Assembly (NCBI RefSeq): GCF_003231495.1
Contig: NZ_PQWO01000001.1
Span: 90,001 to 122,000 of the forward strand
Origin: Acaryochloris thomasi RCC1774
GTDB taxonomy: Bacteria; Cyanobacteriota; Cyanobacteriia; Thermosynechococcales; Thermosynechococcaceae
Length of the DNA stretch: 32,000 bases
Direction of reading: 5' to 3'
The notes beneath the pieces were generated by a model. The model was not told the DNA's origin. It ran no database searches and saw nothing but the letters and a program-made list of their open reading frames with translations. Made by a program: the position numbers and the translations under genes. Shown here one piece after another: positions 3,947-32,000 of this stretch (position 1 is its first letter; each line of letters starts with the position of its first letter).

Positions 3947-4242
3947 AGCATCTGTTCCTCTAGACGAGGAACAGCGCTGGAAGACGCGCTACTGGGACAA
4001 ATACACGATTTAAGCAAGAGCGTATAGGAAAGTTTGCAAAATCTCCGTAATTTCTCGGTTAACCACGGTTTAGTTATCTTTTACGATGTATTTATTGGGC
4101 TGTCATACCCCCCGCATATAGCCCAGCTGAGTCCCCGAAATGGCAACTTGTTCCGAAAGGACAAGGCGCAAACTGGCAGACCTAAAAACCATCTTAGGGG
4201 TATGGATGCTGTTGGTTCCGAAGGGACTTTACATAATCAAAG

Positions 4243-4277
4243 CCCAAGCCCCTGCCCTTCTGGGTGGGGGTTTTGGG
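4243..4277. terminator. possible bidirectional hairpin between the convergent cupin and hydrolase genes
   Basis: cccaagcccc ... gggggttttggg can pair (about 10 bp with one bulge), with an inner ccc/ggg pairing. It lies 16 nt downstream of the minus-strand stop at 4293. The U-tract is weak. Confidence 0.3.
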
Positions 4278-4292
4278 TTGGAATCGGTCAGT

Positions 4293-5381
4293 TTAAGATA
4301 TTTTGGCAGCTCTAACATCTATCACTTGTGAATCCAAGACAGGGAATTTTTGCCACCATTCAAGGATGCGGTTCCAGGCCCACCACTGGTCGCGGTCTCC
4401 GCTGTCGCGCTGTCCTGCTTCGCTATTCCAATAGCCGACATGTCCTCCATGATCAGTTAATACCAGCTCTAAGGCTGGGTTTTCGGTACTAAGGTGCTGC
4501 AATTCGGAAACGAGCGTCGGGTCAAACATAGGGTCATCCGCCGCATAGACGATCAGCGTTGGCTTCTTTAATTTCGGCAGTAGATAGAGCGGGCTGGTTG
4601 CAGCATAGTAATCTTCAACGGAATCGAAGCCTAGACGGCCAATGACGATCTCATTATCAAACCCCCAAATGCTGTTGGCGCGCTCAATTGCAGCGGGATC
4701 GATCGCCTCGGGATGGGTGGCATGAATTTGCCATAGCAGTTGCTTTAACGATTTTGCGATCGCACCTTCTAAATATTTACCTAGCGGTGCATTCACCAGA
4801 TAGGATAATGAGCGATTTGATTCCAAGCTGGGGCAAATCACTGCGCCACCCGCCATTTCAGATTCCTGGATATTTAGTTCTGGCCCCCAGTCAGCCACGG
4901 TCTCGGCGGCGTTCACGGCCCACAGCGCCAACTGCCCGCCGAGTGAGTACCCTGTGAACCAGAAGGGCGCGGGACAGCCCATCGCTTTTGCCTGCGCCGC
5001 AATATGGACAAAGTCTTTGCCTTCAAAAATCCCGTCAGAGGTTAAGGCGGGCGAGAGTTCAGCCGTTTTGCCGTGGGCACGCCAGTCAAAGAGAACCACG
5101 GCATAACCGTCGGCATAGGCTTTGCGGCCCAGCAACCTCAAGTACCACTGATTGTCGAGCGTGCCGGTGATGCCGTAGGTGCCCACGATCGTTCCCTTGG
5201 CGTTTTCGGGAATGGCCATAATGCCAAAGATGGGGGTATCTTCAGCGCCAGTAAACACATGCTCTTGATAGGGTGGCTCAGGGGCAGCGATGGTGGCCTT
5301 CCAATTGCGATTTGCCCACAGCGCAATATACAGGGTCATGGTTAGACCATTTCTGAGCAGCAGAGGCGGAGTATACATCAT
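4293..5381 (-). CDS. alpha/beta hydrolase (YheT/COG0429-like)
   Basis: 362-aa ORF with nucleophile elbow GYSLGG and C-terminal DHGGHVGY. The start ATG overlaps the queG stop by 1 nt (TAATG). Confidence 0.8.
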   Translation of the reverse strand: MMYTPPLLLRNGLTMTLYIALWANRNWKATIAAPEPPYQEHVFTGAEDTPIFGIMAIPENAKGTIVGTYGITGTLDNQWYLRLLGRKAYADGYAVVLFDWRAHGKTAELSPALTSDGIFEGKDFVHIAAQAKAMGCPAPFWFTGYSLGGQLALWAVNAAETVADWGPELNIQESEMAGGAVICPSLESNRSLSYLVNAPLGKYLEGAIAKSLKQLLWQIHATHPEAIDPAAIERANSIWGFDNEIVIGRLGFDSVEDYYAATSPLYLLPKLKKPTLIVYAADDPMFDPTLVSELQHLSTENPALELVLTDHGGHVGYWNSEAGQRDSGDRDQWWAWNRILEWWQKFPVLDSQVIDVRAAKIS

Positions 5382-21811: not shown

Positions 21812-21884
21812 AGAACCAGAGACAGCAAGACTTATTCATCATTTTCTGAGCGCGGTCAATATTTTCGAGCAGATACAGTGAACT

Positions 21885-21901
21885 GTCTACAACGTCTACA
21901 A
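21885..21901 (+). promoter_or_regulatory. tandem octamer GTCTACAA-c-GTCTACAA, operator/promoter candidate of parDE-1
   Basis: The direct repeat overlaps a TACAAT -10-like hexamer and lies 42 nt upstream of the parD-1 ATG. The architecture is similar at 28165-28183. Confidence 0.45.
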
Positions 21902-21942
21902 TGTAAATAAATCAACCTTGGTCACATCATTATCGATCGTCC

Positions 21943-22188
21943 ATGACCAAAGAAATCACCGTTTCTACCCGAGTCACCGAAGAACTTGCCACCCAAATCG
22001 ACCAGCTCTCTGAATCGCTAGGCCGCACTCGCGCCTGGATTCTCCATCAGGCTCTAGAAGCTTACGTCAGTAACGAATACGAGTTTTTACAGTCCGTTCA
22101 GCAAGGGTTTGATGACCTTGCCCAAGGCGAAATCGTAGATCATGCTGAAGTCGTTACCGACTACTCTCGTAGACGAACTGCTCCATAG
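21943..22188 (+). CDS. parD: ribbon-helix-helix antitoxin (ParD/CopG-like)
   Basis: 81-aa ORF. It has an N-terminal RHH pattern (ITVSTRVTEELATQIDQLSESLGRTRAWILHQALEAYV), and its stop overlaps the toxin GTG by 1 nt. Confidence 0.75.
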   Translation: MTKEITVSTRVTEELATQIDQLSESLGRTRAWILHQALEAYVSNEYEFLQSVQQGFDDLAQGEIVDHAEVVTDYSRRRTAP

Positions 22189-22469
22189 TGTCCATCGTTT
22201 GGACTAAAAGCGCCCGACAGGATGTAAACGATATTTGGGATTACCTAGCGCTTCGCAACCCAGATGCAGCCGAGCTAACCGAAAGCCAGATTCTCAAAGC
22301 CATCGAAGGGCTATCGGAGTTCCCTAAACGAGGTAGGCCCGGTCGTGCTGCCGGAACCCGAGAACTGGTGATTAAGGGATCGCCCTACGTGGCGGTTTAC
22401 TGGGTGGAAGAAACTCGCGTCGTGATTCTACGAGTCCTACACGGTGCACAGGATTGGCCGAATCTATGA
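22188..22469 (+). CDS. parE: ParE/RelE-family toxin
   Basis: 93-aa ORF: W...A..D...I..Y......A.........I..L..FP..GRPGR..GTRELV...SPY...Y......V.ILRVLHG.Q. Confidence 0.85.
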   Translation: MSIVWTKSARQDVNDIWDYLALRNPDAAELTESQILKAIEGLSEFPKRGRPGRAAGTRELVIKGSPYVAVYWVEETRVVILRVLHGAQDWPNL

Positions 22470-23542: not shown

Positions 23543-26500
23543 ATGTCTCATCACCAGGCTCACCAAACCGCTGCAGGATTTCAAGGACAGCCTTGGCTGG
23601 TCGAGGAACGCGATGCCTGTGGTGTGGGCTTTATTGCTAGTCAACACGGTGAAGAAACCCATCGCCTGATTGAACATGCCCTGACAGGGCTAACCTGCAT
23701 GGAGCACCGGGGAGCCTGCAGCGCCGATCGCGATTCCGGTGACGGCGCAGGTCTGATGACCGCAATCCCTTGGGGTTTGTTTCAACCTTGGTTAGAGGCG
23801 CAGAATGCCTCGGTGAAAGACGCTACGGGCGTGGGCATGGTGTTTTTGCCTGATGATGAAGAGAGGAGTGCGATCGCACGTCAAAAACTAGAACACCTCG
23901 CCACAGAAGTAGGGTTAAACATCATTGGATGGCGTCCCGTCCCCGTTCATCCAGAAGTATTGGGAGAGCAGGCCAAAGCTAATCAGCCGCGAATCGAACA
24001 ACTTTTTGTCACCTCTGAAACGCTGAAGGGCGATGACTTAGAGCGACAGCTTTATCTGGTCCGCAAGCGAATAGAACAGGCCGCAATGGGGAGCGACTGG
24101 GGCACCGATTTCTATGTCTGTTCTTTCTCAAGCCGCACGATTGTCTATAAGGGGATGGTGCGCTCTGAAGTCCTCGGGATGTTTTATGCCGATTTGCAGA
24201 ACCCGCTCTACACAAGTGCCTTCGCGATTTATCACCGTCGCTTCAGCACTAACACGATGCCCAAGTGGCCGCTGGCGCAGCCGATGCGATTCCTAGGTCA
24301 CAATGGCGAAATTAATACGCTGCTCGGCAACATCAACTGGATGAAGGCGCGCAAGCCTCAGCTCAGCCATCCCCACTGGGACCAGTACGCTGAGTCGCTC
24401 GATCCGATTGTGAATGCGAACAATAGCGACTCGTCCAATTTAGATAACGCGATGGAGCTGTTGGTGCAGTCTGGTCGCAGCCCTCAAGAGGCGCTGATGA
24501 TTTTGGTGCCGGAAGCCTATCGCAATCAGCCTGCACTTACCGATCATCCTGAGATTGTGGACTTCTACGAGTACTACAGCGGCCTGCAAGAAGCCTGGGA
24601 TGGTCCGGCCCTAGTCGTATTCAGTGATGGCAAGATGGTGGGGGCGACGCTCGATCGCAACGGCCTCCGTCCGGCGCGGTACTGCATTACTAAAAATGAC
24701 TATGTGATCGTCGGGTCAGAAGCTGGCGTGGTGCCAATCCCAGAGGCTGACATCGTATCTAAGGGGCGGCTAGGGCCAGGGCAGATGATTGCGGTGGATC
24801 TGGAGAAAGAGGAAGTTCTCACCAACTGGCAGATTAAGCAGCGAATTTCTCAGGCACATCCCTATGGGGACTGGATTAAGGAGCAGCGGCAGACATTGGC
24901 CGAAGGTGAATTCCTTGCCAAAGCCCAGATGGATTCGGCGACCTGCTTGAATCAACAGACTGCCTATGGCTATTCCCTAGAAGATGTAGAGATGGTTGTG
25001 CAGGCAATGGCGAAGGATGGCAAGGAGCCGACCTTCTGCATGGGGGATGATATTCCGCTATCGATTTTGTCGTCGCGATCGCATGTCCTCTACGACTATT
25101 TCAAGCAACGGTTTGCACAGGTCACGAACCCCGCCATTGACCCGCTGCGCGAAAAGCTGGTGATGTCTCTGAGTACACAGCTCGGCGAACGCGGGAATTT
25201 ATTAGCCCACGATCCGAAGTCAGCGCAGCTCTTGAAATTATCATCGCCAGTTCTCAATGAAGCTGAACTGGATACGGTGCAGGCATCTAAGCTCGGAACC
25301 GAGACGCTATCGACGCTGTTTGCCGTCGCCGATGGACCGGATGGTTTGAAGCAGGCGGTTCAGAAACTCTGTGAGCAAGCGACCGCAGCGGTGCAGGCCG
25401 GCAAAGGAATTCTGGTACTGAGCGATCGCATCTCCTCAACCCAAGCATCAACCCACCTAGATGCGGACCATACCTATATTCCGCCGCTTTTGGCAGTGGG
25501 AGCCGTTCACCATCACCTGATTCGTCAAAGATTGCGGCTCAAGGCATCTATCGTGGTGGATACCGCTCAATGCTGGAGTACCCATCATTTCGCTTGTCTG
25601 ATTGGCTATGGTGCAGCCGCTATTTGCCCTTACCTGGCACTTGAAACGACTCGCCAATGGTGGGCCAGCGACAAGACCCAGAAAATGATGGAGCGGGGCA
25701 AGATTGAATCTACGACGATTGCGGGTGCCCAAAGCAACTATCGCAAGGCGGTTGAAGCTGGATTGTTGAAGATTCTCTCGAAGATGGGCATTTCCCTGCT
25801 GGCAAGCTATCAAGGCGCACAGATTTTTGAAGCGATTGGCATTGGTTCTGAGCTGCTAGAGCTGGGCTTTGTCGGTACAACTTCTCGCGTGGGCGGTCTT
25901 TCCACTGCGGAGCTGGCGCAGGAAGTAATGGAATTTCATCGCAACGCCTTCCCAGAACTGGATGCCAAGAAGCTGGAGAACTTTGGCTTCATTCAATATC
26001 GACCGGGCGGCGAGTATCACATGAATACGCCCAATATTGCTAAGGTGCTGCACCAGGCCGTAGAGGAGAAACAGTACGATCACTACGAAGTCTATAAGCA
26101 ACAGCTTCAGAACCGACCGATTACCGCGTTCCGTGATTTGCTGGACTTCAGGTTGGGGGATAACGCAATCCCTCTAGAAGATGTAGAACCCGTGGAAGAT
26201 ATTGTGCAGCGTTTTTGCACGGGTGGGATGTCTTTAGGAGCGCTTTCGCGGGAAGCCCATGAGGTACTTGCGATCGCAATGAATCGCCTCGGCGGTCGCT
26301 CCAATTCAGGCGAAGGCGGCGAAGACTCAATCCGCTTCAAGGTTCTAGACGACGTAGATGCTGAGGGCAAATCACAACAGCTCCCCCACCTCAACGGCTT
26401 ACGAAACGGTGACACTGCCAGCTCTGCTATCAAGCAGGTGGCATCAGGACGCTTCGGAGTCACGCCTGAATATCTGATGAACGCCAAGCAGATCGAGATC

Positions 26501-28156
26501 AAGCTGGCTCAGGGTGCAAAACCCGGTGAAGGCGGACAGCTTCCAGGCAAAAAGGTAAGTGCATACATTGCCAAACTACGGAAGTCGAAGCCAGGAGTGA
26601 CGCTGATTTCACCGCCGCCTCACCATGATATTTATTCTATTGAGGACTTGGCTCAGCTCATTTTTGATCTGCACCAGATCAATCCCAAGGCTCGGGTTTC
26701 AGTGAAGCTCGTATCTGAAATTGGCATCGGCACGATCGCCGCCGGAGTCGCAAAAGCCAACGCCGACATCATTCAGATTTCAGGACATGACGGCGGCACG
26801 GGAGCTTCCCCTCTTAGCTCCATCAAGCATGCCGGAAGCCCTTGGGAGTTGGGCCTTACTGAGGTGCATCGCACGCTAATGGAAAACCAGCTTCGCGATC
26901 GCGTCACCCTCAGAGTCGATGGCGGTCTCAAAACCGGCTGGGATATTATTATGGCCGCGATGATGGGCGCTGAGGAATATGGTTTCGGCTCCATCGCCAT
27001 GATTGCAGAGGGCTGCATTATGGCCCGCATTTGTCACACCAACAATTGTCCGGTGGGCGTTGCCACTCAGCAGGAGAAGCTGCGGCAGCGGTTTACGGGG
27101 ATTCCTGAGCATGTGGTTAACTTCTTTGGCTTTATTGCAGAGGAAGTGCGATCGCTTCTCGCTCAGTTAGGCGTTCGCTCTTTAGATGAGATCATTGGCC
27201 GCTCCGACCTGCTGCAAATGCTCGAGGGCGCTGGCCTCACAAAAACGGCGGCGGTGAACTTGGATTGTTTAACGATGCTGCCAGATTCTCGAACGGAACG
27301 CGGTTGGCTTCAGCATGAAGAAGTCCACAGCAATGGGCCTGTGTTTGATGATCAGCTTTTGGCAGATCCTGATATTCAGGCGGCGATTACTCAACATGCT
27401 CAAGTAGAGAAAAGCTTTGAGGTGGTGAATACGGATCGGGCTGTGGGGGCGCGGGTTTCGGGTGCGATCGCAACTCAATACGGCAACACGGGCTTCCAGG
27501 GTCAAATCACCCTCAACCTCAAGGGCAGCGCCGGTCAAAGCTTCGGAGCCTTCAACCTTCCGGGCATGATTCTCAAGCTCACGGGCGAGGCCAATGACTA
27601 TGTGGGCAAAGGTATGCACGGTGGTGAAATCGTGGTTCAACCGCCTACAGAATCACCCTTTGAAGCAGCAGACAACGTAATCATCGGCAACACCTGTCTG
27701 TATGGAGCCACCGGAGGCACCCTATTCGCTAACGGCAAAGCCGGAGAGCGATTTGCGGTGCGAAATTCTAAGGCCCAGGCCGTCATTGAAGGGGCAGGCG
27801 ATCACTGCTGCGAGTATATGACGGGCGGCGTGATTGTGGTTCTGGGTGAGACGGGTCGCAATGTGGGTGCGGGCATGACGGGTGGATTGACCTACGTTTT
27901 GGATGAGGATGGGAGTTTCCCCACTAAGGTGAATCCTGAGATTGTTCAGTTGCAGCGGGTTGTGACTGAGGCGGGTGAGCAGCAGCTTCGCACCCTCATT
28001 CAAGCCCATGTAGAGCATACGGGGAGTGCCAAAGGAGCGGCTGTTTTGAGACAGTGGCCTGACTGCTTGCCTCAGTTTTGGCAAGTGGTGCCACCATCTG
28101 AAGCAGAGCGCCCAGAGGTTACAGCAGCGGAGAAGGTGTTGACGCCAACGGCGTAA
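23543..28156 (+). CDS. glsF: ferredoxin-dependent glutamate synthase
   Basis: About 1537 aa from ATG 23543. The N-terminal amidotransferase Cys lies in [11 protein letters not shown]. The FMN/3Fe-4S domains carry [30 protein letters not shown] and [21 protein letters not shown]-terminal GXGXG beta-helix domain is present. The single large subunit is the size of the Fd-GOGAT class. Confidence 0.95.
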
Positions 28157-28164
28157 GGCAGCTT

Positions 28165-28183
28165 TTGTACACAATGTGTACAA
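28165..28183. promoter_or_regulatory. 19-bp perfect palindrome TTGTACACA-A-TGTGTACAA, operator candidate of parDE-2
   Basis: 9-bp arms with a 1-nt centre. It starts 9 nt after the glsF stop and ends 28 nt before the parD-2 ATG. It contains a TACAAT -10-like hexamer (28179-28184) and can also be read as the tandem octamers GTACACAA-t-GTGTACAA. Confidence 0.55.
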
Positions 28184-28211
28184 TTGAAGTGGAACATTGC
28201 TAGTATTCCAC

Positions 28212-28484
28212 ATGACTGAAACTGCGACGATTACGGTTCGTCTGAATGCCTCCCTTAAGCAACAACTAGAGGCACTTGCTCAAAGCACCCAACGTAGTAA
28301 GTCATGGTTAGCGGCTAAAGCGATTGCTGCGTACCTTGAGCAGGAAGCTTGGCAGATCCAGCAAATTGAGGTGGCTGTTGAACAAGCGAATCAGCCTGAT
28401 ACTGAGTGGGTTGATCATAGCGATGTATCTGCTTGGCTAGAAACTTGGGGCACCGATGAAGAGAAATCTGCTCCATGCCCATAG
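28212..28484 (+). CDS. parD: ribbon-helix-helix antitoxin (ParD/CopG-like)
   Basis: I prefer ATG 28212 (MTETATITVRLNASLKQQLEALAQSTQRSKSWLAAKAIAAYL), which gives an RHH fold pattern. It overlaps the toxin start by 10 nt. Confidence 0.8.
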   Translation: MTETATITVRLNASLKQQLEALAQSTQRSKSWLAAKAIAAYLEQEAWQIQQIEVAVEQANQPDTEWVDHSDVSAWLETWGTDEEKSAPCP

Positions 28485-28765
28485 TTTGGTTGCCTGCCGC
28501 AGTTCAAGACATTATTCACATTCGCACCTACATCTCTGATAACGATCCGGTATCGGCTCGCAATGTTGCACAGAGAATTGATCAATCGGTTAGCAATCTA
28601 GCTAAGATGCCCAATATGGGACGACCGGGACGTTTATTGGGAACTCGTGAACTCGTGGTTAGTGGCACACCCTATTTAGCCGTATATCGGGTTCAAAATA
28701 GTCGTGTTGAGATTCTGCGGGTTTTACATGGACGTCAGCCTTTTCCTGATAACGACACAATTTGA
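28475..28765 (+). CDS. parE: ParE/RelE-family toxin
   Basis: 96-aa ORF paralogous to 22188-22469. Shared blocks are IVW, GRPGR..GTRELV..G.PY.AVY.V......ILRVLHG.Q. Confidence 0.85.
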   Translation: MPIVWLPAAVQDIIHIRTYISDNDPVSARNVAQRIDQSVSNLAKMPNMGRPGRLLGTRELVVSGTPYLAVYRVQNSRVEILRVLHGRQPFPDNDTI

Positions 28766-28771
28766 AGCTCC

Positions 28772-30979
28772 ATGAATCTGATTGATCTTGAGACTGCAGT
28801 TAGCCATATCCATCAATCGTGTGCGGATGAGGAGATTAAGCCATTCTTCTTTGTTGTAGGTGCTGGAATTTCTTTGCCATCAATTCCTTTGGCAAGTCAA
28901 ATTGTAGATGCTTGCAAGAATGTAGCTGCGAAGTGGAAGAGAGATGATGAGCCAGAATTACAGAATGCTAGCGATTCTTATTCACACTGGTTTCAGTTGG
29001 CTTACCCACAGCGGGTGCAGCGCCAGAAGTACCTACGTAATTTGATAGAGGACAAAGCGATTTCTGCTGCTAACCTGCGATTGGCACACTTGTTGCTAGA
29101 TAAGCAGATTACCAATTTGGTCGTCACACCCAATTTTGATGATCTACTGGCTCGGTCGTTAAACCTCTTCGGCGCATCCTATGTCATTTGCGATCACCCA
29201 CAAACGGCTGAGCGAATCGATCCAGAGCGCAATGATTTACAAATCGTTCATGTACATGGAACGTATCAATTTTATGATTGCTGCAACTTGGCTGGTGAAA
29301 TTCAAGAGCGTTCGAAGAATCCTAGTGCAGACAGTTATACGATGCGAGCTTTACTCGACAATATCTTGCTGCGCCGTTCGCCACTTGTGATTGGCTACAG
29401 CGGCTGGGAAGGGGATGTGATTATGGCCGCATTGAAGCGTCGCTTGTCAAGAGGAGCATTGCCAAATAATCTCTACTGGTTCTGCTATCGACGAGAGCAT
29501 ATTGCTGCATTTCCTAATTGGTTAACTGATCATCCCAATGTCTGTTTTGTAGGGCCTGTAGAAAAGTCTCATGAGCATGTTCAGACTGAGGAGACTAATG
29601 AGCCACGGCCTACAGCCTTGACTTCGAGAACACCTAAAAAAGCGATAGAAGAATCCAATAAAAACCTTGTCTCAGGTACCTCAGTTGAGATTACACTATC
29701 GGCACAAGAAATACTTGACAGCTTGGTACGTTCGTTTGGGCTAGAAGCCCCCCTTTTAACGAGAGACCCCCTAAAATTTTTTGCTCAATACCTACGTAAA
29801 TCACTACCCCAAGTTAGGGATCAAGATGATTTATATGCTATTGGCAGTGTCATAGATCGTGTTGGACGTGCAGCGGAACATGAACGTGAAATCATTGAAG
29901 GACAAGCGCAAATTGAGACTTTATTAGAGCCTTTTCGAGATGCACTACGCAGATCAAAGTACCGTGAGGCAGTCCAAATAATTTATAAGCTTGATACGAA
30001 AGTTCTTAATGACCGACAGCGCTGCGATTTAATTTCTAGTCTATGGGATGCAGCTTTAGCTCTAAATGATAGTCCTGATGATGTAATAGATGCTTGTGAA
30101 CAGATTTTGCTGCTGGGGGAGATTTTGACACAGCCGATACCAAAATCAAGTGTCCATACAATTGCAAATGCTCTTTTCAAGAAAGCATATATTCTCCAGA
30201 AAATGGAGCGTTGGGAAGAGGCGATTATTGCTTGGGATCAGTTAATTATAAAATACTCTGAGTTTCCCGCAATTACCTTACAAGAAAAAGTAGCAACTGC
30301 GCTTCTAAAAAAGGGATGGATTTTCCATGAGTTAAAGCATCATGAAGAAGCGATCAAGATGTATAAACAGATTGTTGAGAAATACTCCGACTCTCCTGAA
30401 ACAGTCTTACATGTACGGGTTGCAAATGCACTGTTATTTGAAGCACAAAGTCTCTATGAGTTGGAACGCTATGATGAAATATTGCCTGCTCTTGAACAGT
30501 CTATTGGGAAATACTCTGACTCGCCTGAAACAGATATACAAGAACAAGTCGCGCTGGCTATGCGCTGTAAGGGTTATCTCCTTATCGAGTTGGAGCGTCA
30601 GGCAGAGGCGATCACTGCCTTCGACGAAGCTATTAAGAAGTTCATTGAGTTTTCTGCAACTGAATTAAAAGAACAAGTTGCGGGAGCACTTGTCGAGAAA
30701 GGAAGTACGCTCTTCGAGTTGGAGTTTTTCGAGGAAGGAATAGCTGCCTATGATCAGGTTATTGAGAAATACTCTGATTCTGCTGAAAGTGCCTTACAAG
30801 AACAAGTTGCAAAGGCACTTATCTTCAAGGGTGCTTCCCTTGAAGCACTGGAGGAGCAAGAAGAAGCAACAGCAATTTACAATCAGGTTATCGAGAGGTT
30901 TTCGAATTCACCTGAACCAGCCTTAAAAGAACAGGTACGTCAGGCTCGCCTCAATACAGAGAAAATCTCAGAGTTATAA
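28772..30979 (+). CDS. SIR2-like (SIR2_2-type) NADase domain protein with C-terminal TPR/Sel1-like repeat array
   Basis: 735 aa. The N-terminal ~260 aa carry FFVVGAGISLPSIPL (GAGxS Rossmann loop, G30), VVTPNFDDLLARS (TTNYDxLxE-like, N121), IVHVHGTY (H162) and PLVIGYSGWEGDVI (FxGYSxxD-like). Residues ~450-735 are 43-residue helical repeats. The ATG lies 6 nt after the parE-2 stop. Confidence 0.75.
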   Translation: MNLIDLETAVSHIHQSCADEEIKPFFFVVGAGISLPSIPLASQIVDACKNVAAKWKRDDEPELQNASDSYSHWFQLAYPQRVQRQKYLRNLIEDKAISAANLRLAHLLLDKQITNLVVTPNFDDLLARSLNLFGASYVICDHPQTAERIDPERNDLQIVHVHGTYQFYDCCNLAGEIQERSKNPSADSYTMRALLDNILLRRSPLVIGYSGWEGDVIMAALKRRLSRGALPNNLYWFCYRREHIAAFPNWLTDHPNVCFVGPVEKSHEHVQTEETNEPRPTALTSRTPKKAIEESNKNLVSGTSVEITLSAQEILDSLVRSFGLEAPLLTRDPLKFFAQYLRKSLPQVRDQDDLYAIGSVIDRVGRAAEHEREIIEGQAQIETLLEPFRDALRRSKYREAVQIIYKLDTKVLNDRQRCDLISSLWDAALALNDSPDDVIDACEQILLLGEILTQPIPKSSVHTIANALFKKAYILQKMERWEEAIIAWDQLIIKYSEFPAITLQEKVATALLKKGWIFHELKHHEEAIKMYKQIVEKYSDSPETVLHVRVANALLFEAQSLYELERYDEILPALEQSIGKYSDSPETDIQEQVALAMRCKGYLLIELERQAEAITAFDEAIKKFIEFSATELKEQVAGALVEKGSTLFELEFFEEGIAAYDQVIEKYSDSAESALQEQVAKALIFKGASLEALEEQEEATAIYNQVIERFSNSPEPALKEQVRQARLNTEKISEL
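30122..30976 (+). repeat. in-frame 129-bp (43-aa) tandem repeat array inside the SIR2-TPR gene
   Basis: Units start near 30122, 30251, 30380, 30509, 30638, 30767 and 30896 (the last is partial). The consensus is KYSDSPE..LQEQVA.AL..KG..L.ELER.EEAI.AYDQVIE. Confidence 0.8.
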
Positions 30980-31108: not shown

Positions 31109-31330
31109 TTAGGACCCAAAATGAGCATCGAGTTTGTTCAGTACACTCAGCCCCTTCTCAACTGACCCACATGCAGCCATCGCCCGGAACCGGGTTTCAG
31201 CATCAAATTCCGCCAATGCCTGAGTCGACAACTCCTCAATAAGCTTGTTGACGCTAATCTTACGATGGCTGGCAAGGGCTTTGAGACGTGAGTGCTTATC
31301 GTCAGGGATGCGTATCGTTAGCGTTGCCAT
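31109..31330 (-). CDS. ribbon-helix-helix (Arc/CopG, so-called HicB-type) antitoxin
   Basis: 73-aa ORF, MATLTIRIPDDKHSRLKALASHRKISVNKLIEEL..., with an RHH pattern. The ATG lies 1 nt after the stop of the PIN remnant. Confidence 0.7.
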   Translation of the reverse strand: MATLTIRIPDDKHSRLKALASHRKISVNKLIEELSTQALAEFDAETRFRAMAACGSVEKGLSVLNKLDAHFGS

Positions 31331-31487: not shown

Positions 31488-31517
31488 CTATGGGTGCGAT
31501 CGCACCTCTCATCCCTC

Positions 31518-31946
31518 CTACAGAAACACACCTGGATCAACCTTAAACTTCTCACCCAAAGCTCGGGCCATCGCCTTAGAAATCCCTCGCTTACCATTGA
31601 AAACCTCAGAAACAACCCCTCGACTGCCGATAACTCCTACAAAGTCAGCCTGTCTCAAGCTGTTGGTCTGGGCCAACTCCAGCAAAAAATCTAGAGGCTG
31701 AGCCTTCATCTCATCAGAAAAAGCATAGTGCTCCTCCTCAAAGCGCTCAATCAGTTGAGTCAGCAATTCCACCAAATCTTCCTCAGCCTGAGTCAAATCA
31801 TCCCGATGAGCCAGTTCTGCAACAGTAGCCAAAGCATCCTCATTATCTTGCTCAGAGCGAATCGGAGTAGGACGATAATGCCCTAGCAAACACTCATAGG
31901 AGTTTCGGTCAATAGTAGGGGTCACGCTTCCAGTCATCCTTGTCAT
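31518..31946 (-). CDS. higA: HigA-family antitoxin (C-terminal XRE-type HTH)
   Basis: 142-aa ORF. It has a central ...LVELLTQLIERFEEEHY and a C-terminal HTH, LRQADFVGVIGSRGVVSEVFNGKRGISKAMARALGEKFKV, as in E. coli-type HigA. The start is uncertain (31946, 31937 or GTG 31925). Confidence 0.75.
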   Translation of the reverse strand: MTRMTGSVTPTIDRNSYECLLGHYRPTPIRSEQDNEDALATVAELAHRDDLTQAEEDLVELLTQLIERFEEEHYAFSDEMKAQPLDFLLELAQTNSLRQADFVGVIGSRGVVSEVFNGKRGISKAMARALGEKFKVDPGVFL

Positions 31947-32000
31947 ACTCCTTATGCGTGAGAACGTACTTGATAAAGATGCGTTGTCTCATGTAATCGA
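31909..32000 (-). CDS. higB: HigB-family toxin, C-terminal part (runs off the window)
   Basis: The minus-strand frame reads ...DYMRQRIFIKYVLTHKEYDKDDWKRDPYY*, with the stop at 31909-31911. This matches the HigB_toxin C-terminal block +IF+K.+.TH.EYDK. It overlaps the higA 5' end. Confidence 0.6.
   Translation of the reverse strand, partial: DYMRQRIFIKYVLTHKEYDKDDWKRDPYY

Follow-up and report, generated by a model that had tools for sequence, protein, structure and literature searches.

A ParDE toxin-antitoxin cassette directly upstream of a SIR2-TPR gene in Acaryochloris thomasi RCC1774

Several SIR2 effectors need partners, among them ThsB, prokaryotic Argonaute (pAgo), HerA and KomAB. DSR2 of Bacillus subtilis (8wyb, 8k9a) is a single chain with an N-terminal SIR2 domain, a helical middle and a C-terminal alpha-solenoid, and it has no partner. 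Toxin-antitoxin (TA) pairs can be accompanied by a third gene on the same strand, as in the tripartite systems TAC (HigB-HigA-SecB-like chaperone) and PaaR2-PaaA2-ParE2. Here we analyzed a 32-kb window of Acaryochloris thomasi RCC1774 (the window is the whole stretch of DNA under analysis, and all coordinates are window positions) in which a ParD-ParE pair is followed at once by a gene for a SIR2-TPR protein, one that joins a SIR2 domain to an array of tetratricopeptide repeat (TPR)-like repeats. A preliminary description of the locus had presented the three genes as a candidate module, with the SIR2 effector hard-wired to a ParDE pair. On balance we favor a reading in which the locus holds two independent units, a ParDE TA cassette and, beside it, a horizontally acquired stand-alone SIR2-TPR gene whose product would act in a DSR-like manner.

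The SIR2 domain concerned is of the SIR2_2, or SIRim, type, which lacks the Zn module and belongs to an immune clade of sirtuins (PMC12700824; bioRxiv 10.1101/2024.09.18.613514). Taken as a whole, the SIRim clade is reported to be 12-fold enriched in defence contexts (bioRxiv 10.1101/2024.09.18.613514). In AVAST type 5 (Avs5) and in eukaryotic SIRim-NLR proteins, which have an N-terminal SIR2/SIRim domain and C-terminal TPR-type repeats as SIR2-TPR does, the order is SIR2, STAND NTPase (nucleoside triphosphatase) and TPR (PMC12931631; bioRxiv 10.1101/2024.09.18.613514). TPR-fused SIR2_2 proteins appear only as tree labels (PMC12700824), and a literature search on 'SIR2-TPR' and 'TPR-SIR2' found no paper.

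Layout of the locus and conservation of the juxtaposition

The region begins directly behind the stop codon of glsF, which ends at 28156. A palindrome at 28165-28183 is followed on the + strand by parD (28212-28484; 90 amino acids, aa), by parE (28475-28765; 96 aa), which overlaps parD by 10 nt, and by the SIR2-TPR open reading frame (ORF; 28772-30979, 735 aa), which starts 6 nt past the parE stop. All of these positions agree exactly with those in the preliminary description, which had also seen no terminator or promoter between the genes; our scan of the + strand from parD to the end of the SIR2-TPR gene predicted neither a sigma-70-like promoter nor an intrinsic terminator. Because the 6-nt gap leaves no space outside parE for a separate promoter, the SIR2-TPR gene is probably expressed in A. 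thomasi RCC1774 by read-through transcription from the ParDE-repressed promoter. Rfam and tRNA scans found nothing relevant at the locus, and the fold z-score of the 3′ intergenic region (-1.36) was not significant.

We fetched the loci of SIR2-TPR homologues from 80 species-representative genomes and 80 metagenomes (160 in all) and searched all of their ORFs by phmmer with ParD and ParE of the window, as well as with a hidden Markov model (HMM) built from 120 ParE homologues. Approximately 116 loci included 600 nt or more of sequence upstream of SIR2-TPR, and parDE was found directly in front of the gene in none of them. By phmmer and HMM alike, the 160 loci contained two ParE-like ORFs, one per set and both on the opposite strand, of which one stands head-to-head with the SIR2-TPR gene (L006) and the other 2.6 kb away (L135). 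No TA gene was found directly upstream in any of three close relatives (P0002, P0003 and P0025). Neither did any other family recur: when three neighbors on each side were clustered, 347 ORFs gave 315 clusters, none of them present in more than three loci, and at least some of the largest reflected local synteny among Pyrinomonadaceae. The hard-wired ParDE of the preliminary description therefore has no counterpart directly upstream of SIR2-TPR in the 160 homologue loci.

Examined from the side of the toxin, ParE has many homologues at 70-80% identity, most of them on metagenome contigs, and the closest named ones are cyanobacterial (Aphanocapsa, Altericista). We inspected six contexts, five of them independent, of close ParE homologues (72-78% identity). 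In all six, a ParE of approximately 94 aa is preceded, again with a 10-nt overlap, by an RHH_1/RelB3_C antitoxin of 90 aa, and the genes behind parE are unrelated to SIR2. In one of them a Uma2 gene comes next on the other strand; in others, hypothetical genes lie on the other strand past a gap of 350-690 nt. Homology between the cassettes stops at the end of parE, the operator being kept and the flanks not. In a further context, on a cyanobacterial contig (L084 / L085 4001-4903), the cassette is followed on the same strand, after 36 nt, by cpeS and phycoerythrobilin genes. As a second instance of a parDE cassette placed immediately ahead of an unrelated gene, this context shows that tight same-strand adjacency arises by chance. 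Judging from these sequence relatives, the parDE lineage appears to be common in cyanobacteria as an autonomous two-gene unit, and we consider it very probable that the window pair is an autonomous cassette with its own operator.

It is thus with high confidence that we regard the juxtaposition of parDE and SIR2-TPR as something other than a conserved module; co-transcription of the three genes is probably an accident of spacing and local rearrangement, not a conserved design. Alternatively, parD, parE and SIR2-TPR might constitute one three-gene defence module, in which the TA pair serves as a stress- or infection-responsive gate or as a back-up toxin. The 6-nt gap, the common strand, the lack of a predicted promoter or terminator between the genes, their shared, atypically low GC3 (G+C content at third codon positions; 0.37-0.41), which would suit genes acquired together in one block, and the remodelled 3′ end of parE at the junction would all fit such a module. 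Its absence from the approximately 116 informative loci, the position of the two ParE-like genes on the opposite strand, the lack of parDE next to the closest SIR2-TPR relatives and the unrelated genes behind the closest ParE relatives, including cpeS at 36 nt, make it improbable, as do the differing histories of the two parts. The third gene of a tripartite TA system accompanies its pair from genome to genome, whereas SIR2-TPR does not recur with parDE.

Composition bears on those histories. GC3 is 0.41, 0.37 and 0.37 for parD, parE and SIR2-TPR, against 0.585 for glsF and 0.47-0.62 for most window genes, and the three genes have the lowest values in their part of the window, which marks them as recent or foreign. 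Counts of 20/60 G+C at 30241-30300 and 31/60 at 26461-26520, given earlier as spot checks, were reproduced exactly. However, homologous parDE cassettes elsewhere also have a rather low GC3 (0.41-0.50), and the closest SIR2-TPR relatives for which a locus was fetched are located in DNA of low G+C content (as in a Methanococcoides genome, 0.39), so that a shared composition is no proof of joint arrival. The nearest relatives of ParE are 70-80% identical to it, versus no more than 46% over full length for SIR2-TPR, and on these sequence comparisons the two units appear to have had different histories.

The parDE cassette, its operator and the junction with SIR2-TPR

The parD product matches the ribbon-helix-helix (RHH) family RHH_1 of Pfam (E 4.8e-5, 23.6 bits against a cut-off of 20.5), and its C-terminal part is RelB-like, a match that falls under the cut-off (E 3.7e-10). 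The parE product matches ParE_toxin (PF05016) at aa 3-88 (71.4 bits against a cut-off of 23, E 9.4e-20) and is identical to a protein annotated 'Toxin RelE2'. An RHH antitoxin immediately upstream of ParE with a 10-nt overlap is the arrangement expected for translational coupling in type II TA systems. With its 90-aa antitoxin, 10-nt overlap and palindrome, the pair is typical of chromosomal cyanobacterial ParDE, although its ParE departs from the cassette family in being 96 instead of approximately 94 aa long, in its divergent end and in having a gene 6 nt after its stop.

The palindrome is perfect over 19 bp (TTGTACACA-A-TGTGTACAA), with two fully complementary 9-nt arms around a single nucleotide, and is the only exact occurrence of TGTACA-N5-TGTACA in the window. 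Relatives of the cassette carry the same conserved operator, TGTACA-N5-TGTACAAT; in 5/5 aligned cassettes the sequence TGTACAyAtTGTGTACAAT lies approximately 27 nt 5′ of the antitoxin ATG, and the sequence farther upstream is unrelated. The hexamer TACAAT (28179-28184, +), which begins inside the right arm, is invariant in these five cassettes and is the probable -10 element of the parDE promoter; a consensus promoter scan detected no full -35/-10 promoter at this position. Since the palindrome is kept in homologous cassettes of other genomes it is more than a chance occurrence, and this sequence conservation points to a genuine cis-element of the cassette. The simplest explanation is that it serves as an operator and overlaps the -10 box; in analogy to what other RHH antitoxins do, ParD, alone or with ParE, would bind the palindrome and repress the promoter. 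Two other assignments were considered and rejected. As a terminator of glsF the element would be A+T-rich, with a 1-nt loop and no U-run; it was not called by the scan, and it is conserved with parDE and not with glsF. As an NtcA site (GTA-N8-TAC) it has the wrong spacing, N9.

A paralogous RHH+ParE pair stands alone at 21943-22469 (+), 6 kb upstream, with 47% identity in ParE and 29% in the antitoxin. Upstream of it, at 21880-21905, is a direct repeat, GTCTACAA-C-GTCTACAAT, whose end is TACAAT as in the palindrome at 28165. These GTCTACAA boxes are possibly an operator of this type that has diverged.

The last four or so codons of parE are divergent, reading PDNDTI before the stop in the window as compared with a family consensus of roughly PDAL. 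The 3′ end is otherwise well conserved in the cassette family, and these codons together with the 6-nt spacer (28745-28771) deviate from it. This segment may be the scar of a rearrangement or deletion that placed the start codon of SIR2-TPR beside parE, and the divergent parE end suggests a rearrangement at the junction.

The SIR2-TPR protein and family in comparison with described systems

The 735-aa protein is identical to one annotated as hypothetical, C1752_00136. Pfam SIR2_2 (PF13289), the family that the preliminary description had expected, matches at aa 116-243 (E 4.4e-10, 40.3 bits against 24.5), and TPR families (TPR_6, TPR_12, YbgF-like) match aa ~460-735 in a 44-aa register. An AlphaFold (AF2) model built on 25 homologues has a mean predicted local distance difference test (pLDDT) score of 82.7 and is made up of four parts. 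A SIR2_2 domain with a Rossmann-type fold (aa 1-262; 28772-29557, +) is followed by a probably disordered linker (aa 266-305; 29567-29686, +), modelled with low confidence (pLDDT < 50) and variable in length among homologues. Next comes a conserved helical middle region (aa ~306-457; 29687-30142, +), with helices at 311-451 and conserved alignment columns at L309, P327, L341 and Y397. The protein ends in a TPR-like array of approximately six two-helix repeats of 43-44 residues (aa 458-735; 30143-30979 with the stop codon, +), which is modelled at pLDDT > 90. The middle region has no P-loop or NTPase, and inspection of aa 260-457 found no Walker A motif; by Pfam and in the model, no NTPase, SLOG, Macro, APAZ or HerA element was found anywhere in the protein.

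The motifs of the SIR2 domain lie where they had been described, with the NAD-loop motif GAGIS at 30-34, TPNFDD at 119-124 (N121) and HVHG at 160-163 (H162). In an alignment of 25 homologues, G30, G32, S34, N121, D123, D124 and H162 never vary, so the Asn/His pair is a feature of these relatives as well. There are six cysteines in aa 1-262 (C17, C48, C140, C170, C171 and C238). As they form no CxxC pairs and the model has no extra module, the Zn-binding 4-Cys module of canonical sirtuins is absent.

In sequence, the best PADLOC matches were to models of Argonaute-associated SIR2 (Aga_SIR2; E 5e-24, aa 64-244), those to Aga_SIR2-PNTD covering only model positions ~70-250, the SIR2 part; the DSR1, DSR2 and ThsA models gave no match at E <= 0.1. 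A sequence search of the PDB returned one clear match, SIR2-APAZ of the Geobacter Sir2/Ago system (8jkz/8in8, E 2.9e-6), with whose NFDD and HG motifs N121 and H162 align; the NADase (NAD+-hydrolyzing enzyme) KomC came next as a weak match. In structure, the best 29 Foldseek matches in the PDB were all DSR2 chains (E 1e-8 to 1e-6). Their global TM-scores are low (0.2-0.3, rmsd ~28 Å) because the domain arrangement differs from that of DSR2; target-normalised scores were 0.64 for a SIR2-only fragment of DSR2 and 0.61 for KomC, and KomBC entries were also among the PDB matches. The repeat array matched the TPR proteins LGN, OGT, Rap and designed CTPR, and a search of viral structures returned generic TPR proteins only, which is uninformative. 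The nearest SIR2 relative by sequence is thus the pAgo-associated SIR2, and the best full-length fold match is DSR2. The likeness to the DSR1/DSR2 layout that had been proposed earlier holds at the level of the fold, while the proposed ThsA-type affinity of the SIR2 domain gives way to the pAgo-associated one.

Like DSR2, SIR2-TPR is a single chain with N-terminal SIR2, helical middle and C-terminal alpha-solenoid; the SIR2 domain of DSR2 has a catalytic His (PDB entries use H171A), a feature that SIR2-TPR would share. It differs from DSR2 in lacking any sequence match to the PADLOC DSR models, in its length (735 aa versus DSR2 chains of 920-1000 residues, i.e., approximately 25% shorter) and in its repeats, which are regular, 43-residue and TPR-like where those of DSR2 are HEAT-like. 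It therefore shares the DSR architecture, SIR2 plus alpha-solenoid and no partner, but falls outside DSR1 and DSR2 by sequence. SIR2-APAZ of SPARSA (Geobacter sulfurreducens, 8jkz, 8in8) has the SIR2 domain closest to it by sequence; SIR2-TPR, however, has no APAZ/PNTD region and carries a TPR array in place of the Ago-binding part, and there is no Piwi/Argonaute ORF in 26-32 kb of the window. Avs5 has an NTPase between effector and repeats, whereas SIR2-TPR has no NACHT, NB-ARC or AAA domain there, aa 266-457 being linker and helices. Thoeris ThsA has a SLOG (or Macro) domain and a TIR partner, ThsB; SIR2-TPR has no SLOG, Macro, TIR or ThsA match. Pfam, PADLOC and the model agree with the preliminary description that a SIR2 effector is here joined directly to helical repeats, with no NTPase, SLOG, HerA or Argonaute partner.

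A word-indexed search found 429 proteins at E <= 0.001. The best 120 of these 429 are mostly near full length (32-49% identity, 640-1200 aa), and nearly all have SIR2_2 plus TPR; their named members come from Acidobacteriota, Blastocatellia, Betaproteobacteria, Syntrophorhabdaceae and others. The best SIR2-TPR homologue is 46% identical, and none exceeds this over full length. An exhaustive HMMER search with the N-terminal 440 aa gave 440 clusters (at 50% identity) with E <= 1e-30, whose members are 45-54% identical to the query in this part, and full-length relatives were spread over Acidobacteriota, Myxococcota, Planctomycetota, Bacillota and archaea. Among the closest relatives (42-46%), two are apparently archaeal, one from a Methanococcoides sp. 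metagenome-assembled genome (L001) and one from a contig with archaeal flagellin and MreB-like genes (L083), which implies that the family has been transferred between domains of life. From these searches, SIR2-TPR appears to be a sizeable and uncharacterised single-gene family with no fixed partner.

The C-terminal repeat has a period of 43 residues and is present in 2-12 copies in nearly all of the best 120 homologues, where identity between repeats of one protein is often 75-85%. Many members have repeats that are 75-98% identical (examples are P0002, P0003, P0018 and P0044). Such near-identical repeats suggest that the array was expanded or homogenised not long ago. The repeats of the window protein are old and diverged, with a mean pairwise identity of ~22% and a maximum of 48%. 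An extra C-terminal domain ('GGE..EL.D..IH') is found in 24 of the 120 homologues; the window protein is without it. On a speculative note, near-identical repeats suggest a periodic or polymeric ligand.

Two relatives are carried by mobile elements. A full-length family member with 39.6% identity is encoded on a 77-kb plasmid of Priestia megaterium, pELP1.24a_3, and the Haloferax provirus Halfgib1 codes in its accessory region for a distant SIR2+TPR protein, which aligns with 61% of the query at 24% identity. The latter (L091, MW344766.1, 2062-3729) is a 555-aa 'tetratricopeptide repeat protein' of a pleolipovirus with a distant N-terminal SIR2 domain (E 1e-13), and its gene has a wHTH regulator/integrase on one side and a dcm methylase on the other, which makes it a candidate for a SIR2-TPR carried by a virus. 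Carriage by plasmid and provirus fits an accessory or conflict role and is no proof of one.

Predicted function and significance of SIR2-TPR

DSR2, pAgo-associated SIR2 and KomC act as ligand-triggered NADases, and by analogy SIR2-TPR may be activated in the same way. We put somewhat better than even weight on SIR2-TPR being, as its domains suggest, an NAD+-consuming defence or conflict effector. In this view the SIR2 domain would be kept inactive by the repeat array together with the helical middle region, until these bind a protein ligand that comes from an invader. The SIR2 domain would then hydrolyze NAD+ via N121/H162, probably after a change of oligomeric state, and the loss of NAD+ would abort the infection; this mechanism is modelled on domain homology only.

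Several observations weigh against the reading of two independent units with a DSR-like effector. The NADase and anti-phage activities of family members are predicted from their domains, and the co-transcription and operator binding at the locus are likewise predictions. The low GC3 common to the three genes would also be compatible with their acquisition as one block. SIR2-TPR matches no PADLOC DSR1, DSR2 or ThsA model. The N-terminal 440 aa, at 45-54% identity across phyla, are unusually conserved for a fast-evolving immune gene, and the tandem repeats, in many homologues 75-85% identical, are unlike a surface fitted to one specific protein. Finally, the 239 neighbors of homologues that we scanned with Pfam and PADLOC (123 first and 116 second neighbors) are mostly housekeeping genes, and only a handful match PADLOC models. 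Pfam families among them include UbiD/UbiA, methyltransferases, aldehyde dehydrogenase, Glu/Gln-tRNA synthetase, NAD synthase, gyrase A, Pol A and LpxB; among the Pfam matches listed, no TA family was found in more than one neighbor. The sparse PADLOC matches were to MADS components, a type IV restriction enzyme, a type I S subunit and a few candidate families.

Gene context therefore gives the family no strong defence-island signature, and because the neighbors are mostly housekeeping genes, it is from the domains and not from the context that we infer a defence role. The preliminary description had found its data consistent with a horizontally acquired defence islet. The foreign composition (GC3) bears out acquisition. 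The homologues for the most part have no TA or defence genes next to them, an outcome that the preliminary description had named as evidence against its proposal. In A. thomasi itself other TA genes do lie around the locus, as had been stated. Besides the pair at 21943-22469, these are an apparently orphan RHH/HicB-like antitoxin at 31109-31330 (-), with no toxin ORF beside it, and a 142-aa HigA-like ORF at 31518-31946 (-), which has no Pfam match and whose start overlaps the end of a gene running off the window; 31518-32000 (-) could be a HigB/HigA-type pair.

The same neighbor survey is one argument for a non-immune SIR2-TPR, a cellular regulator that would act as NAD+-dependent ADP-ribosyltransferase or deacylase with the TPR array recruiting an endogenous substrate or scaffold. 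Strong conservation of the N-terminal 440 residues across phyla, motifs (GAGxS, TxNxD, HG) that are common to all sirtuins including protein-modifying ones, repeats homogenised as in scaffold TPR proteins, and OGT and LGN scaffolds among the PDB matches would agree with such a role. On the other hand, the domain is of the SIR2_2/SIRim type, without the Zn-binding module needed for deacetylation (PMC12700824), and its nearest relatives are the pAgo-associated SIR2, DSR2 and KomC NADases. Patchy spread, absence of synteny beyond close relatives, foreign composition in the window and the plasmid copy are, moreover, traits of an accessory gene. We consider a regulator unlikely, though the strongest of the alternatives.

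SIR2-TPR might also be one half of a system whose sensor or signal-generating partner is encoded elsewhere in the genome, given that partner dependence is well represented among SIR2 effectors. None recurs in the 160 loci, however, and the protein itself carries a large repeat domain, the part that usually serves as sensor where a system consists of one protein, as in DSR2, making a distant partner very improbable.

A bolder proposal, to which we would assign little probability, is that the ParDE-repressed promoter has been co-opted as an infection switch, and/or that the family is a new single-gene anti-phage system. If phage-induced shut-off or proteolysis removed the labile ParD, the operon would be de-repressed, the level of the SIR2-TPR NADase would rise and ParE would be freed, so that a TA system and a DSR-like effector would have formed a hybrid de novo. 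Independently of this, the family might sense a periodic or polymeric viral structure via its near-identical 43-residue repeats.

Two further features were seen in the window. A HIP1-like GCGATCGC palindrome is located at 31495-31504, and a c-di-GMP-I riboswitch aptamer (Rfam RF01051; 40.7 bits against a gathering score of 35, E 7.9e-5) at 4132-4222 (+), inside a 93-aa ORF call at 4034-4315.

Under our preferred reading of two independent units, the close placement of a gene behind a TA pair on the same strand says little about a functional link in TA-rich cyanobacterial genomes, and the parDE lineage with its conserved operator can be used for annotation. Single proteins with SIR2_2 and TPR-like repeats form a delimited, widespread family in bacteria and archaea, a plasmid copy included. 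PADLOC models match the SIR2 domain only and place SIR2-TPR in no described system. By its sequence and predicted fold, SIR2-TPR appears to be an uncharacterised DSR-like variant of the single-protein sensor-NADase class, and the family would extend the DSR-type one-chain 'sensor-NADase' principle to a new sensor scaffold.

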